DNA of 64,000 nt from a phage, in the NCBI GenBank assembly GCA_016390365.1, contig GCA_016390365.1_3043.1; one strand, written 5' to 3'. Positions 5,443 through 47,438 of this stretch are shown piece after piece. Positions within the stretch are counted from its first letter, which is position 1; each line of letters begins with the position of its first letter. Under the pieces are notes generated by a model, which saw nothing but the letters and a program-made list of their open reading frames with translations, had not been told where the DNA came from and searched no databases. Position numbers and translations under genes: made by a program.

Positions 5443-5776
5443 AATTTTGGTTTTATGTATAGGATTAATTTCATTTTCTGCGTTAGCAGATACATCATAT
5501 ACTGAAATTAGAGAGTATGTAAACCGTACTGCAGCGGATTATTGCGGGAAAAATAAAGCATGCCAAGCTGAATTTGCACAGAAATTAATATATGCATATA
5601 AAGACGGAGAAAGAGATAAATCAAGCAGATACAAAAATGATACATTGTTAAAACGATATGCTAAAAAGTGGAATACCTTAGAATGTTCAGTTGCGGAGGA
5701 AAAAGATAAAGCCGCTTGTCATTCAATGGTTGACCGTTTGGTAGATTCTTATAATCGAGGATTGAGTACTAGATGA
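5435..5776 (+). CDS. secreted small protein (vs position)
   Basis: N-terminal signal-like MTKILVLCIGLISFSALA; synteny with T4 vs. Confidence 0.45.
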   Translation: MTKILVLCIGLISFSALADTSYTEIREYVNRTAADYCGKNKACQAEFAQKLIYAYKDGERDKSSRYKNDTLLKRYAKKWNTLECSVAEEKDKAACHSMVDRLVDSYNRGLSTR

Positions 5777-6252
5777 TTGTAAAATATATCAAGGGCGATA
5801 TTGTCGCCCTATTTCTTCAAGGTAATATTATTGCGCACGGGTGCAATTGTTTTCATACTATGGGTTCAGGTGTAGCGGGTCAATTAGCCAGAGCCTATCC
5901 CAAAATTTTAGAAATAGATAAAACCACTACTGAGTACGGTTCTCGCGATAAATTAGGCGATATGTCTATTGTTTTTAAACATAAACCTAATGGTTTTGGC
6001 ATATGTTATAACTTGTATACGCAATACGAACCAGGTCCTAATCTTGATTATGGTGCTTTAGTAAACTGCATGATAGAATTAAATCTACAGGCAGAAACCC
6101 TTTTGTTTAAACCAGTAATTTACATTCCACGCATAGGTTGTGGTATTGCTGGCGGCGATTGGGATAAGGTTTCTAAATTAATCGACATGTTTACTCCTGA
6201 TATTGATTTAATAGTGGTGGATTATGAAAGTACATTACCCACATCCGTTTGA
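5773..6252 (+). CDS. macro-domain protein (TARG1/Poa1p-like ADP-ribose processing fold)
   Basis: motif HGCNCFHTMGSGVAGQL resembles the HCISxDCxMGAGIA signature of TARG1-type macro domains. Confidence 0.6.
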   Translation: MIVKYIKGDIVALFLQGNIIAHGCNCFHTMGSGVAGQLARAYPKILEIDKTTTEYGSRDKLGDMSIVFKHKPNGFGICYNLYTQYEPGPNLDYGALVNCMIELNLQAETLLFKPVIYIPRIGCGIAGGDWDKVSKLIDMFTPDIDLIVVDYESTLPTSV

Positions 6253-19089: not shown

Positions 19090-19318
19090 AGAATATATGG
19101 AGGCTGCTGAAAAGGCAGTCCGTGAATTAGCAATAGCTTATTATAATGAACACGGTAAATTTCCTGATAGATACAGCGTGCTTAAATCTGCTTTAACTCG
19201 TTCATATAAAAATATGCTATCAGAAGTAAGTGATATTATATACAAACATAAAGAACAAACAGGCCAAAGTCTTGATTACGACGAGACTTTTAAACAAGTA
19301 TTAGGAATTAAGGAATAA
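19076..19318 (+). CDS. hypothetical protein
   Basis: start ATG 19076 (MTKRKEY), overlaps upstream stop. Confidence 0.45.
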
Positions 19319-42967: not shown

Positions 42968-44395
42968 GTGGTAGAAATTATTCTTTCTCATCTTATATTT
43001 GATCAAGCTTATTTTTCAAAAGTTTGGCCATATATGGATTCAGAATATTTTGAAAGTGGTCCAGCTAAAAATACATTCAAATTAATTAAATCTCATGTTA
43101 ATGAGTACCATAGCGTTCCATCTATTAATGCGTTAAATGTTGCATTAGAAAATAGTTCATTTACTGAAACAGAATATTCTGGTGTAAAAACACTTATTTC
43201 GAAACTAGCCGATTCTCCAGAAGACCATAGCTGGTTAGTAAAAGAAACAGAAAAATATGTTCAGCAAAGGGCGATGTTTAATGCTACGTCTAAAATAATT
43301 GAAATTCAAACTAATGCTGAGCTTCCTCCGGAAAAACGAAATAAGAAAATGCCAGATGTAGGTGCTATTCCTGACATCATGCGCCAAGCATTATCAATTT
43401 CATTTGATAGTTACGTTGGTCATGATTGGATGGATGACTACGAAGCACGTTGGCTATCTTATATGAATAAAGCTCGTAAGGTTCCATTTAGACTCAAAAT
43501 TCTAAATAAAATTACTAAAGGTGGAGCTGAAACTGGAACACTGAACGTTTTAATGGCTGGTGTTAACGTCGGTAAGTCATTAGGTCTGTGTTCATTGGCA
43601 GCAGATTATTTGCAGCTCGGACATAATGTTCTTTACATTTCCATGGAAATGGCAGAAGAAGTCTGTGCTAAGCGTATTGATGCTAATATGCTTGATGTTT
43701 CTCTTGATGACATTGATGACGGGCATATTTCTTACGCTGAGTATAAAGGAAAAATGGAAAAATGGCGCGAGAAATCTACTCTCGGTCGTTTAATAGTTAA
43801 ACAGTATCCTACTGGTGGAGCAGATGCTAATACATTTCGATCGCTTTTAAACGAATTAAAGCTCAAGAAGAATTTTGTTCCAACAATCATTATTGTCGAC
43901 TATCTGGGTATTTGTAAATCTTGCCGCATTAGAGTTTACTCAGAAAATAGTTACACAACTGTTAAAGCCATTGCAGAGGAATTACGTGCTCTTGCTGTTG
44001 AAACCGAAACTGTTCTTTGGACTGCAGCACAGGTTGGTAAACAAGCTTGGGATTCTTCTGATGTTAACATGAGCGATATTGCAGAATCTGCCGGTCTTCC
44101 AGCAACAGCTGATTTTATGCTTGCGGTCATTGAAACCGAGGAGTTAGCAGCTGCTGAACAACAACTTATTAAGCAAATCAAATCACGATATGGTGATAAG
44201 AATAAATGGAATAAGTTTTTGATGGGTGTTCAAAAAGGAAATCAGAAATGGGTAGAAATTGAACAAGATTCTACTCCAACTGAAGTGATTGAGGTAGCAG
44301 GTTCACAACAGATACAAGCTGAACAGAATCGCTATCAAAGAAATGAATCGACTCGAGCTCAGTTAGATGCTTTGGCAAATGAATTAAAATTTTAG
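42968..44395 (+). CDS. 41: replicative DNA helicase gp41 (DnaB-like)
   Basis: 475 aa, GTG start; Walker A GVNVGKS. Confidence 0.95.
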   Translation: MVEIILSHLIFDQAYFSKVWPYMDSEYFESGPAKNTFKLIKSHVNEYHSVPSINALNVALENSSFTETEYSGVKTLISKLADSPEDHSWLVKETEKYVQQRAMFNATSKIIEIQTNAELPPEKRNKKMPDVGAIPDIMRQALSISFDSYVGHDWMDDYEARWLSYMNKARKVPFRLKILNKITKGGAETGTLNVLMAGVNVGKSLGLCSLAADYLQLGHNVLYISMEMAEEVCAKRIDANMLDVSLDDIDDGHISYAEYKGKMEKWREKSTLGRLIVKQYPTGGADANTFRSLLNELKLKKNFVPTIIIVDYLGICKSCRIRVYSENSYTTVKAIAEELRALAVETETVLWTAAQVGKQAWDSSDVNMSDIAESAGLPATADFMLAVIETEELAAAEQQLIKQIKSRYGDKNKWNKFLMGVQKGNQKWVEIEQDSTPTEVIEVAGSQQIQAEQNRYQRNESTRAQLDALANELKF

Positions 44396-44426
44396 TTTAC
44401 AAGCTGACAAGACTATGGTATAGTAG
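44392..44426 (+). promoter_or_regulatory. early promoter with stem-loop around -10
   Basis: gtttac 44395-44400; inverted repeat acaagact/agtcttgt flanks atggtatagt. Confidence 0.55.
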
Positions 44427-44453
44427 TCTTGTTGGTTAAATGAGGAGATTGTT

Positions 44454-44636
44454 ATGGAATTGGTAAAGGTAGTTTTTATGGGGTGGTTTAAGAATGAAAG
44501 CATGTTTACTAAAGAAACCACAATGATGAAAGATGACGTTCAATGGGCTACTACTCAATATGCTGAAGTTAATAAAGCATTAGTTAAAGCTTTCATTGAT
44601 GACAAGAAAGTATGTGAAGTTGATTGCCGAGGATAA
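44454..44636 (+). CDS. dmd: Dmd, antitoxin against RnlA/LsoA
   Basis: 60 aa MELVKVVFMGWFKNESMFTKE... matches recalled T4 Dmd. Confidence 0.9.
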   Translation: MELVKVVFMGWFKNESMFTKETTMMKDDVQWATTQYAEVNKALVKAFIDDKKVCEVDCRG

Positions 44637-44637
44637 T

Positions 44638-44895
44638 ATGCATATTGTTTTATTTAAACCTACACCGTATAACATCAGGAAAAATACTCAATTCAAAGCA
44701 CTTATTGCAGATACGTGGGAATTGGTGTTAGATATTCCACCAGAAGAAAGTCCTCCATCTGGTCGAGTGGAATTTATTAAGTTTGCTGTACGTCCTACGA
44801 AGCGACAGATTCGCCAATGCAAAAGATACTTTCGTAAAATCGTCAAGCTAGAGAAACAGTTTGTAACATGTGATTACGCAGAAGTTTTAAAATAA
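44638..44895 (+). CDS. 61.4-like small protein (possibly TifA-like anti-ToxIN factor)
   Basis: start ATG 44638 after SD gagga; synteny dmd-61.4-sp; TifA identity from memory only. Confidence 0.5.
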   Translation: MHIVLFKPTPYNIRKNTQFKALIADTWELVLDIPPEESPPSGRVEFIKFAVRPTKRQIRQCKRYFRKIVKLEKQFVTCDYAEVLK

Positions 44896-44955
44896 CTATT
44901 TACTTTTGTTGGAAATTGAGATATTATATAAACATAAACTACCGAGGAGATTATC

Positions 44956-45249
44956 ATGAAAAAATTTATCTTTGCTGCAATTTTTGCTTTAGCTTCTTGC
45001 GCTGCTCAACCTGCCATGGCAGGCTATGATAAAGATTTGTGCGAATGGTCTATGACTGCGGATCAGACTGAGGTTGAAACTCAAATTGAAGCAGATATTA
45101 TGAATATCGTTGAGCGCGATCGCCCCGAAATGAAAGCTGAAGTGCAAAAACAGCTTAAGTCTGGTGGTGTAATGCAGTATAATTATGTTCTGTATTGCGA
45201 TAAAAACTTTAATAATAAAAATATCGTAACCGAAATCACAGGCGAATAA
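44956..45249 (+). CDS. sp: Spackle periplasmic protein Sp
   Basis: 97 aa MKKFIFAAIFALASCAAQPAMAGYDKDLCEW matches recalled T4 Sp. Confidence 0.9.
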   Translation: MKKFIFAAIFALASCAAQPAMAGYDKDLCEWSMTADQTEVETQIEADIMNIVERDRPEMKAEVQKQLKSGGVMQYNYVLYCDKNFNNKNIVTEITGE

Positions 45250-45250
45250 T

Positions 45251-45883
45251 ATGATTTATTATATGCACAAAAATCCACCGTTTAAATACGGTAAATTTCC
45301 TGATGCACAATGTTATAATATAACGCCTGATGAAAATAACCGTGGATATCTTATTGGCACAATTTTTGTAATTGTTAAAGATAACGAAATCGTTGCCTGG
45401 GCAGATTTTAAAGGTACAACATATGATGTTAATCCGGTGCCTTTCACATATTACAATTTAATGGATTTGGCATACGATTATAATTGGTTTAATCATGATA
45501 CTTTGGCTCATATTGAAGGTGTAGGATTTGATATTTCATATTCGGAATACACTTTAAGCCCTATGAGTCGAGCCCATAAAGAACCTGAATATTTTTCATT
45601 TAGGAAACGTGTAAACTTTAAACGCAGCACAGAGTATGTCGGTGGAATTTTTGTTAAAGATAATCGAATTATTCGTATTAATTATCCTTTGAGCGTTAGT
45701 CAAAAAGATATTGATGTTGATTTAGATTTCACTGAAAATAATATTAATAATATTGCTTCTGTGTATTTTGGTATCGATCACAAAATTGTAATATGTGGAT
45801 ATGAATTACCGTTTGAAGAACAGCCTAAAGTAAAAGTTTCTATTGACGATCAAATTTTTAATGCTTTTATGAATAAAGGTTAA
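45251..45883 (+). CDS. 61.2-like protein with internal repeats
   Basis: 210 aa; repeated VKDN-containing motifs; C-terminus IDDQIFNAFMNKG. Confidence 0.6.
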   Translation: MIYYMHKNPPFKYGKFPDAQCYNITPDENNRGYLIGTIFVIVKDNEIVAWADFKGTTYDVNPVPFTYYNLMDLAYDYNWFNHDTLAHIEGVGFDISYSEYTLSPMSRAHKEPEYFSFRKRVNFKRSTEYVGGIFVKDNRIIRINYPLSVSQKDIDVDLDFTENNINNIASVYFGIDHKIVICGYELPFEEQPKVKVSIDDQIFNAFMNKG

Positions 45884-45887
45884 TATG
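45839..45887 (+). repeat. direct repeat copy 1 (gene 3' end)
   Basis: 49 nt, about 4 mismatches to 46197..46245. Confidence 0.7.
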
Positions 45888-46241
45888 TATAGTTCTGAAT
45901 TTTCATATTTAAAAATGGAAAAAATTTCATACGATTTTATAGATGAAAAGGTTTATTACAGTTTCCATGAACCGCGTTTTAATAGTGAGGTTGGGTTTAT
46001 TGTAGTAAAAGACAATTTCATTTTAAAGATATATTCGGCATTAAAGGATTTTCACTACGAAAATATTAACCTAAAATTTGATAAAGAAAACGTTCGTAAT
46101 TGTGCAGTAACAATTACAGGAAATAAAGGTGCATGTGTTATGCTATCTGATGAAATTAATGATTTGCTAAATGATGCAGAAAATATTACTGCGCCATCTA
46201 TTGATGACCAAATTTTTAATGCTTTTATGAATAGAGGTTAA
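45885..46241 (+). CDS. hypothetical protein sharing C-terminal module with 61.2-like gene
   Basis: 118 aa ending IDDQIFNAFMNRG. Confidence 0.5.
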   Translation: MYSSEFSYLKMEKISYDFIDEKVYYSFHEPRFNSEVGFIVVKDNFILKIYSALKDFHYENINLKFDKENVRNCAVTITGNKGACVMLSDEINDLLNDAENITAPSIDDQIFNAFMNRG

Positions 46242-46245
46242 TATG
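46197..46245 (+). repeat. direct repeat copy 2 (gene 3' end)
   Basis: matches 45839..45887. Confidence 0.7.
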
Positions 46246-46407
46246 AAAACATATAAAGAATTTATCAAAGAAGATATGGTTGCTGGAGATTCAGGTGGTA
46301 ATCCTGAAAATATCTCTACTGGAACAGCGTCAGGCGCTGTAGTAAATAAAGGCCCTGAACAGATTTCTAAAAAGAAAAAAGAGGAATCTAAAGAAAAAGA
46401 AGAGTAA
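46243..46407 (+). CDS. hypothetical small protein with capsid-targeting-like N-terminus
   Basis: 54 aa MKTYKEFIKEDMVAGDSGG...; N-terminus resembles internal-protein CTS; Lys/Glu-rich tail; not in track. Confidence 0.4.
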   Translation: MKTYKEFIKEDMVAGDSGGNPENISTGTASGAVVNKGPEQISKKKKEESKEKEE

Positions 46408-46409
46408 AA

Positions 46410-47438
46410 ATGTCATCAATACCTTGGATTGATAATGAGTTTGCGTATCGTGCATTAGCTCATTTACCTAAATTCACACAAGTAAATAATAGTTCAACTT
46501 TTAAATTACGGTTTAGATGCCCAGTGTGTGGAGATTCAAAAACCGACCAGAATAAAGCCCGTGGATGGTATTATGGTGATAATAATGAAGGAAATATTCA
46601 TTGTTATAACTGTAACTATCATGCACCAATCGGAATATATTTAAAGGAGTTTGAACCCGATTTATATCGTGAGTATATCTTTGAAATAAGAAAAGAAAAA
46701 GGTAAAAGTCGTCCAGTAGAAAAACCTAAAGAACTTCCTAAACAACCTGAGAAGAAAATAATTAAATCTCTTCCGTCATGTGTTAGATTAGATAAACTGG
46801 CGGAAGACCATCCAATTATAAAATATGTAAAAGCTCGTTGTATTCCAAAGGATAAATGGAAATATCTTTGGTTTACAACTGAATGGCCTAAATTAGTTAA
46901 TAGTATAGCTCCAGGAACATATAAAAAGGAAACACCTGAGCCTCGTCTTGTTATTCCAATTTATAATGCTAACGGAAAAGCTGAGTCTTTTCAAGGACGT
47001 GCATTAAAGAAAGATGCTCCTCAAAAATATATCACCATCAAAGCTTATCCTGAGGCAACAAAAATCTATGGAGTCGAACGAGTCAAAGATGGTGATGTAT
47101 ATGTTCTAGAAGGACCTATAGATTCGCTTTTTATTGAAAATGGTATAGCTATTACAGGTGGTCAATTAGACCTAGAAGTTGTTCCATTTAAAGATAGACG
47201 TGTGTGGGTTTTAGATAATGAACCTCGTCATCCTGACACTATTAAGCGAATGACTAAATTAGTTGATGCAGGAGAAAGGGTTATGTTTTGGGATAAATCT
47301 CCCTGGAAATCAAAAGATGTTAATGATATGATTAGAAAGGAAGGTGCAACCACTGAACAAATTATGGAATATATGAAAAATAATATTGCTCAGGGGTTGA
47401 TGGCTAAAATGCGGTTATCTAAATATGCTAAGATTTAA
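46410..47438 (+). CDS. 61: DNA primase gp61
   Basis: 342 aa; zinc ribbon CPVCGDSK...CYNC; Toprim region. Confidence 0.95.
   Translation: MSSIPWIDNEFAYRALAHLPKFTQVNNSSTFKLRFRCPVCGDSKTDQNKARGWYYGDNNEGNIHCYNCNYHAPIGIYLKEFEPDLYREYIFEIRKEKGKSRPVEKPKELPKQPEKKIIKSLPSCVRLDKLAEDHPIIKYVKARCIPKDKWKYLWFTTEWPKLVNSIAPGTYKKETPEPRLVIPIYNANGKAESFQGRALKKDAPQKYITIKAYPEATKIYGVERVKDGDVYVLEGPIDSLFIENGIAITGGQLDLEVVPFKDRRVWVLDNEPRHPDTIKRMTKLVDAGERVMFWDKSPWKSKDVNDMIRKEGATTEQIMEYMKNNIAQGLMAKMRLSKYAKI

Follow-up and report, generated by a model that had tools for sequence, protein, structure and literature searches.

What is the extra gene that some T4-like phages carry between genes 61.2 and 61.1, and does it belong to the anti-defense functions of its neighbors? 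In the phage DNA analyzed here (NCBI GenBank assembly GCA_016390365.1, contig GCA_016390365.1_3043.1; the window is the whole stretch of 64,000 nucleotides), six small genes lie between the replicative helicase gene 41 and the primase gene 61: dmd, tifA (61.4), sp, adfA (61.2), an open reading frame (ORF) of 118 amino acids (aa), and 61.1. The gene order in T4 is the same, but T4 has no ORF at all between 61.2 and 61.1, and the 118-aa ORF is thus indeed an extra one, as a sequence-only reading of this DNA had called it. That reading also suspected an anti-defense role for the ORF; homology supports the suspicion, without specifying the function. Judging by homology, the 118-aa protein has a single domain and is a paralog of the C-terminal half of AdfA, the half that includes the position-164 helix; its gene is old and has been maintained by selection. 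The region as a whole is very probably an accessory 'anti-toxin island' of T-even phages, with this paralog among its genes and with the replication genes 41 and 61 on either side. The island itself is not new, since it has already been published as an anti-toxin-antitoxin (anti-TA) island of T4-like phages. What is new is the AdfA-family membership of the 118-aa gene. The duplicated promoter P61, the asparagine at AdfA position 164 and the serine at TifA position 41 described below are useful annotations and not surprises. The phage belongs to Tequatrovirus (T4-like), and over the 2-kb interval 44396-46409 its DNA shares 98% identity with JK1, PhiZZ23, JK38 and many others; this interval has matches in 665 phage records. 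All ORFs called by the sequence-only reading were recovered at the same positions, on the plus strand, by the ORF list and the family scans; every feature given below is on that strand.

The 118-aa ORF (45885-46241) follows adfA (45251-45883). Its product falls into PHROG 4122 (E = 7e-72) and matches the Pfam family AdfA with 31.8 bits (cut-off 27), over profile positions 113-211 only. The 210-aa product of adfA matches the same family (PF23813) over positions 1-211 of 211 (E = 3e-139, 461.7 bits). When the 118-aa family was compared with the C-half of AdfA by hhalign, the probability was 97.8% (E = 1.2e-12, 95 columns), and BLASTP aligned the 118-aa protein with AdfA at 36% identity over 103 aa. 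Moreover, the cluster representatives of the 118-aa protein carry a precomputed PF23813 match. In the AlphaFold2 model of the protein (predicted local distance difference test, pLDDT, 82.6), a unit of five strands and one helix is followed by a short strand and two more helices. The AdfA model (pLDDT 73.8) shows two halves, each with five strands and a helix, and then a tail helix. In these models, the motif (F/V)VxVKDNxI forms the same hairpin in both halves of AdfA and in the 118-aa protein. The C-terminal tail of the latter, SIDDQIFNAFMNRG, fits the family tail [SV][IV]DDQIFNAFM[NK][RK][GD]. The 118-aa protein has the same C-terminal domain, VKDNxI hairpin, 164 helix and tail as the AdfA family, and differs from it by the missing N-terminal domain and by the low identity. 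The two-domain architecture of about 210 aa is absent from the 118-aa protein, and AdfA residues 1-110 have no counterpart in it.

The sequence-only reading had described the 61.2-like product as a repeat protein. The shared VKDNxI hairpin and the repeated five-strand/helix pattern of the model are in line with this description, but sequence statistics give it no strong support: hhalign of the N-half of AdfA against its C-half aligned only 12 columns, those of the VKDNxI motif, with 11% probability. From the models, it is plausible that AdfA is a tandem duplication of the domain that is present singly in the 118-aa protein.

The 118-aa ORF is a real gene under purifying selection. The ratio of nonsynonymous to synonymous substitution rates (dN/dS) of the ORF is 0.12 in comparison with the T2 copy and 0.34 in comparison with the 75%-identical copy of phage Elenatom. 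A tblastn search with the protein found matches in 338 phage records, in 294 of them at an identity of at least 90%. A 45%-identical ortholog is kept in the same slot by phages of the genus Gaprivervirus, and the paralog is therefore not a recent duplicate. A profile search of 1.84 billion representatives returned 10 matches, all of them AdfA-type proteins, 118-type proteins or fragments, and revealed neither a bacterial origin nor an antitoxin relative; BFVD contained T-even relatives only. These searches place the AdfA/118-aa family in T-even phages alone.

The slot between sp and 61.1 is occupied differently in different phages. T4 has adfA only, and T2 has the 118-aa gene only. Both genes are present in the phage studied here and in NR1, Lutter, AR1, RB27 and CrRp10. 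RB69 carries adfA and two unrelated small ORFs, and Elenatom carries a broken adfA and an intact paralog. The layout with both genes is seen with RB69/AR1-type and T4-type AdfA alike, and a junction query found adfA adjacent to the 118-aa gene in 158 records. Such queries join pieces up to ~650 nucleotides (nt) apart, and the counts for the T2-type (254) and the T4-type (271) layouts, being contaminated by genomes with both genes, were not used.

The case of T2 deserves a comment. In the literature, this phage counts as one that is naturally without an adfA homolog. Strictly speaking, T2 carries a half-size AdfA-family member, as recognized by homology, namely the hypothetical protein between sp and 61.1 (GenBank:PV958097.1, XYW65410.1). 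This protein, HY01_0032 and AR1_036 are all orthologs of the 118-aa protein, 95-99% identical to it and encoded in the same slot, and the orthologs are annotated as hypothetical everywhere. In T2 the ortholog is the sole AdfA-family gene, whereas in the phage studied here it follows a full-length adfA. Many T-even phages carry a second, half-size AdfA-family gene, and T2 is included among them even though it has been treated as adfA-less. Where T2 or a similar phage serves as an 'adfA-free' background, the half-size family member needs to be accounted for.

Several other arrangements were seen in this slot. In Elenatom (L005, 1868-2490), adfA is broken into a 98-aa N-terminal and a 64-aa C-terminal ORF and is probably a pseudogene; the adjoining 119-aa paralog is intact. 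In the Gaprivervirus phages EAWsc9 (L004, 2062-2499) and DK-13 (L006, 2017-2454), a 145-aa protein occupies the adfA position and precedes the ortholog of the 118-aa protein. It has no Pfam match and shares with AdfA essentially only the tail VDDQIFNAFMKRD. In one record this 145-aa protein is labeled 'serine/threonine protein kinase', a label that looks unfounded. The Yersinia phage phiD1 (L013, 1886-2437) seems to carry the 118-aa gene twice, together with a 33-aa tail fragment, in an interval full of ambiguous bases. True tandem amplification, heterogeneity of the population and an assembly artifact induced by the repeat are all possible origins of the second copy, and it was not used as evidence of amplification.

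To consider what the paralog may do, it is necessary to look at AdfA first. Gene 61.2 is adfA (PMC9391042; PMC11825919), and the link to AdfA made in the sequence-only reading was borne out by the full-length family match and by identities of 83.5% to RB69 AdfA and 74.4% to T4 AdfA. RB69 AdfA, with arginine at position 164, does not bind DarT1, whereas its R164H escape variant binds strongly in a two-hybrid assay and rescues the phage (Johannesman et al. 2025, PMC11825919). T4 AdfA, with His164, binds DarT1 weakly and is dispensable for DarTG1 resistance; the main anti-DarTG1 factor is AdfN (gp30.3) (PMC11825919). In the mechanism that we propose, the two-domain AdfA would neutralize DarT1 by direct binding, and residue 164 on the surface helix would set the specificity.

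In the phage studied here, the residue at AdfA position 164 (RB69 numbering) is asparagine, within the motif NNINNIASVYF. Asn164 is also found in NR1 and Lutter. Histidine is present in AR1, RB27, CrRp10, phiD1 and T4, and arginine in RB69. The corresponding codons, CGT, CAT and AAT, are single steps apart. Asparagine is thus a third natural allele next to the studied histidine and arginine. Binding of DarT1 has been reported for His164 alleles only, strong in the case of RB69 and weak in the case of T4, and neither of the two family proteins of this phage has His164. By homology, the 210-aa protein belongs to the AdfA family over its full length (PF23813; PMC11825919), but the anti-DarT1 activity of its allele cannot be assumed, because position 164 holds asparagine and not histidine. 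As a side remark on numbering, adfA has two candidate starts, at 45251 (MIYYMHKN...) and at 45263 (MHKN...). RB69 adfA has been annotated and cloned from the second methionine and T4 adfA annotated from the first, which results in a numbering offset of 4.

By analogy with AdfA, the 118-aa protein may bind a host toxin stoichiometrically through its helix-bearing domain, the most likely target being a variant of DarT different from the tested E. coli DarT1. We put this forward as a tentative proposal, and several observations weigh against it. First, T2 has a 96.6%-identical copy of the 118-aa gene, yet T2 ΔadfN forms no plaques on DarTG1 hosts (PMC11825919). At its native expression, the paralog thus gives no protection against that DarT1, and the same holds for T4 AdfA. 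Second, the 118-aa protein is devoid of the N-terminal domain of AdfA. Third, the column aligned to AdfA position 164, located on the helix that follows the sheet and spans residues 67-78 of the 118-aa protein, holds asparagine and not histidine (the Elenatom ortholog has histidine there), and the alignment, at ~35% identity, is uncertain at the level of single residues. Finally, transcripts from one of the promoters discussed below (copy A) would begin shortly after the ATG of the 118-aa ORF, which would leave only upstream early transcripts for its expression.

The alternative that fares best is that the primary role of the AdfA family is not directed against DarT. The family may be tied to replication or to primase, or may bind some other host factor via the C-terminal helix, and the DarT1 binding conferred by His164 would then be a side activity. 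It would agree with such a role that T4 ΔadfA has no DarTG1 phenotype, that T4 AdfA binds DarT1 weakly, that the best-conserved part in every member is the tail helix and not the 164 helix, and that the genes lie within the 41-61 replication cluster. However, one substitution, R164H, is enough to make RB69 AdfA bind DarT1 strongly and to rescue the phage, and the natural R/H/N variation at position 164 is as expected of an arms-race interface. Besides, the neighboring dmd and tifA encode proven toxin inhibitors. A primary role unrelated to DarT thus appears unlikely to us.

Whatever its target, the putative toxin binder has a gene flanked on both sides by a 49-nt direct repeat, a module that occurs twice in the island. 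Copy A (45839-45887) comprises a MotA box, TAATGCTTTT, at 45859-45868, a 12-nt spacer and the -10 element TAATAT at 45881-45886, with a predicted transcription start at ~45893; its -10 element shares nucleotides with the stop codon of adfA and with the start codon of the 118-aa ORF. Copy B (46197-46245) has its MotA box at 46217-46226 and its -10 element at 46239-46244, with a predicted start at ~46251, inside 61.1. In a repeat search, the two copies were 94% identical over 49 nt; the rest of adfA and of the 118-aa gene are only ~35% identical at the protein level. Copy B is identical over 49 nt to T4 positions 19170-19122, and the start site of the middle promoter P61 is T4 position 19122 (Hinton 2010 review, PMC2988021, Table 1). 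Copy B is the counterpart of T4 P61, with the same MotA box, spacer, -10 element and position over a stop/start junction. Copy A also aligns to P61. The difference from T4 is that the module is present twice here and that copy A precedes the 118-aa ORF and not 61.1.

The consensus of MotA-dependent middle promoters is (a/t)(a/t)(a/t)TGCTTtA, located 12±1 bp upstream of a -10 element TAtaaT. Both copies conform to it, with a MotA box matching at 9 of 10 positions, 12 nt and TAATAT. In both, the -10 element overlaps the TAA stop and the ATG that follows it; transcription is predicted to start 8 nt past this ATG. In the record of phage Lutter, 27-nt promoters are annotated at both module places. 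We infer that this phage has two P61-type promoters. Since the predicted starts fall within the coding sequences of the 118-aa protein and of 61.1, only upstream early transcripts would allow these two small proteins to be translated. The middle transcripts from copies A and B would then serve primase.

The same module encodes the conserved C-terminal tail SIDDQIFNAFMN(K/R)G, which forms the C-terminal helix in the AdfA and 118-aa models. The extreme conservation of this peptide would follow from the fact that the same DNA encodes it and the primase promoter P61. In RB69 and in Gaprivervirus, synonymous changes leave the amino acids (V/I)DDQIFNAFM intact, even where the MotA box itself has degenerated. 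Every gene of the slot ends in the module, and the layouts differ exactly there, which makes the module an obvious substrate for homologous exchange. The shared module is likely the recombination substrate behind the three layouts, i.e. adfA alone, the 118-aa gene alone, or the two together. The overlap of the peptide with P61 would offer a simple route for the gain and loss of cassettes. As for the T2 layout, an origin by simple microhomology deletion of adfA was considered and rejected, the junction sequence being no exact fit. A resemblance to the end of the tail module is still visible, at 13 of 14 positions, in the 14 nt that precede the T2 gene (TAGAGGTTAGTATG).

Cassettes shuffled through their early promoters have been described in T4-type genomes. 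The tail joint, if real, would be a middle-promoter analog of these cassettes. Taken together, the 118-aa protein might be a stand-alone toxin inhibitor with a target of its own, for instance a DarT homolog or some other toxin, and its P61-bearing tail a portable joint by which AdfA-type cassettes are gained, lost or stacked with primase expression undisturbed. We consider this combined scenario possible but somewhat doubtful.

Another explanation of the module invokes promoter constraint only. The near-identity of the 49 nt would then reflect P61, the ribosome-binding site and the stop/start junction, and the module would be neither a protein motif nor a unit of recombination. The 9/10 MotA box, the 12-nt spacer, the -10 element TAATAT and the agreement with the mapped T4 P61 are all accounted for in this way. 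It does not account for the tail amino acids being preserved through synonymous changes in RB69 and Gaprivervirus, nor for the three layouts differing exactly at the module, and we regard it as rather improbable. In the weakest alternative, a partial duplication of adfA left the 118-aa ORF behind as a remnant without function, kept for P61 and for the coupling signals of 61.1 and primase. This would fit a protein that matches only half of AdfA, an ORF that ends in the P61 module, the fact that T4 manages without the gene and the full DarTG1 sensitivity of T2 ΔadfN despite having it, but it is very improbable in view of a dN/dS of 0.12-0.34 over the whole ORF, an intact frame in ~300 genomes, the retention of a 45%-identical ortholog in another genus, Gaprivervirus, the intact paralog beside a broken adfA in Elenatom, a compact domain confidently predicted at pLDDT 82.6, and the persistence of the gene in T2, where a second promoter copy is no longer needed, the preceding gene being absent.

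The remaining genes place the proposed toxin inhibitor in its context. In the words of Srikant et al. 2022 (eLife), the region "may be an anti-TA island", and its other genes are "attractive anti-toxin candidates" (PMC9391042). The sequence-only reading had regarded it as a counter-defense islet. This agrees with the published island but is too narrow with respect to sp, which is a gene of superinfection exclusion. The T4 island (PMC9391042) and the one described here have in common the gene set, its order, the position between 41 and 61 and the early-type promoters, and Dmd, TifA and Sp are 94-98% identical between them. Compared with T4, this phage adds the 118-aa ORF and the second copy of the P61 module, and it has the Ser41 allele of TifA and an RB69/AR1-type AdfA with Asn164.

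The first gene downstream of helicase 41 is dmd (44454-44636, 60 aa). It matches Pfam Dmd (PF17587, E = 1.8e-45, 153.5 bits, cut-off 27) and PHROG 2102, and its product is 98.3% identical to T4 Dmd and 100% identical to T2 Dmd, which justifies the earlier call. By homology to tested proteins, Dmd is a direct protein inhibitor of the RnlA/LsoA toxins, and it would bind and block these RNases. The gene lies behind an early promoter (44396-44424; TTTACA, 17-nt spacer, TG-TATAGT), which scored 10/12 plus the TG in the sigma-70 scan, and whose hexamers and spacer are identical to those of the T4 counterpart, a published early promoter. This promoter would drive a dmd-tifA unit; in T4, dmd and 61.4 are co-transcribed from an early promoter (PMC9391042), and dmd is co-operonic with tifA here.

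The gene tifA (44638-44895, 85 aa) matches Pfam DUF7279 (E = 8.8e-20, 70.8 bits, cut-off 24.5). The sequence-only reading had connected this 61.4-like ORF with TifA. In T4, gene 61.4 was renamed tifA and encodes a protein inhibitor of ToxN (Srikant et al. 2022, PMC9391042), and the product found here is 95.3% identical to T4 TifA over 85 aa, with the changes V13I, A35P, F41S and I83V. TifA binds both ToxN and RNA and depends on the RNA binding (Guegler et al. 2023, PMC10853763). A central cluster of basic residues, those replaced in the K55A R56A R59A mutant (PMC10853763), is required for it. This cluster, K55, R56 and R59, is kept here (RPTKRQIRQCKRYFRK, from direct reading of the translation). 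Residue 41 of TifA is at the predicted ToxN interface, where phenylalanine is weak and serine or histidine strong. F41S arose in experimental evolution, with markedly stronger ToxN binding and inhibition, and it occurs naturally in phage Thu1/R2, which can grow on toxIN hosts with a single copy of tifA (PMC10853763). Position 41 is serine in this phage, and its TifA is therefore predicted to be a strong ToxN inhibitor. It would bind ToxN together with RNA and thereby trap the toxin.

A second early-type promoter precedes sp (44899-44927; TTTACT, 17-nt spacer, TATTAT; sigma-70 scan). The site is conserved with T4, with 2 substitutions, and a promoter is annotated at it in the Lutter record; Srikant et al. 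also mention a promoter downstream of tifA (PMC9391042). The sequence-only reading had given these small genes a promoter of their own; early-type promoter-like sites conserved with T4 are present upstream of both dmd and sp. The sp promoter would drive a unit of sp, adfA, the 118-aa gene and 61.1, chained by stop/start overlaps. The arrangement TAATATG is found at 4 consecutive junctions (44620-46256), dmd/tifA, sp/adfA, adfA/118-aa and 118-aa/61.1, which suggests translational coupling along both putative operons.

The product of sp (44956-45249, 97 aa) had been correctly recognized. It matches Pfam T4_Spackle (PF25676, E = 1.5e-45, 154.2 bits, cut-off 27), is 93.8% identical to T4 Sp and begins with the signal peptide MKKFIFAAIFALASCAAQPAMA (direct sequence reading). 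Sp is a periplasmic inhibitor of the tail lysozyme, active in superinfection exclusion, and sp is not a counter-defense gene. In this phage, it would likewise be a periplasmic lysozyme inhibitor that keeps out superinfecting phages.

In RB69 (L007, 4012-4690), imm and imm.1, which are superinfection-immunity genes, are inserted between tifA and sp, and 2 more small ORFs are found between helicase 41 and dmd. Together, these insertions make the islet a general insertion hotspot for accessory genes.

The gene 61.1 (46243-46407) encodes a conserved low-complexity protein of 54 aa (PHROG 1823, E = 7e-32; 92.6% identical to T4 61.1), for which the family scan found no Pfam family. The flanking genes, identified by their ORFs and by synteny with T4 and with the NR1 annotation, are the replicative helicase gene 41 (42968-44395) on the left and the primase gene 61 (46410-47438) on the right. 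According to the ORF list, uvsX, gene 40 and helicase 41 are plus-strand ORFs to the left of dmd. None of the six proteins matched the PADLOC defense models. There was no Rfam family in 44000-47000 at E up to 1, and the scan of the islet region found no intrinsic terminator.

Finally, AdfA may be compared with other factors directed against DarTG, i.e. AdfB of ICP1, AdfN (T4 gp30.3, NADAR) and AdfM (T4 Tk.4, macrodomain). A sequence or fold relation of these three to the AdfA family was not found. AdfB appears to act by binding the toxin, as AdfA does, whereas AdfN and AdfM, unlike AdfA, are enzymes that take ADP-ribose off DNA. The Tk.4 macrodomain protein of T4 was named AdfM, an anti-DarTG2 factor, in the HIDEN-SEQ preprint. 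A homolog of T4 Tk.4 is encoded at 5773-6237 of the window; it is 57% identical to the T4 protein and far more diverged than the neighboring core genes.

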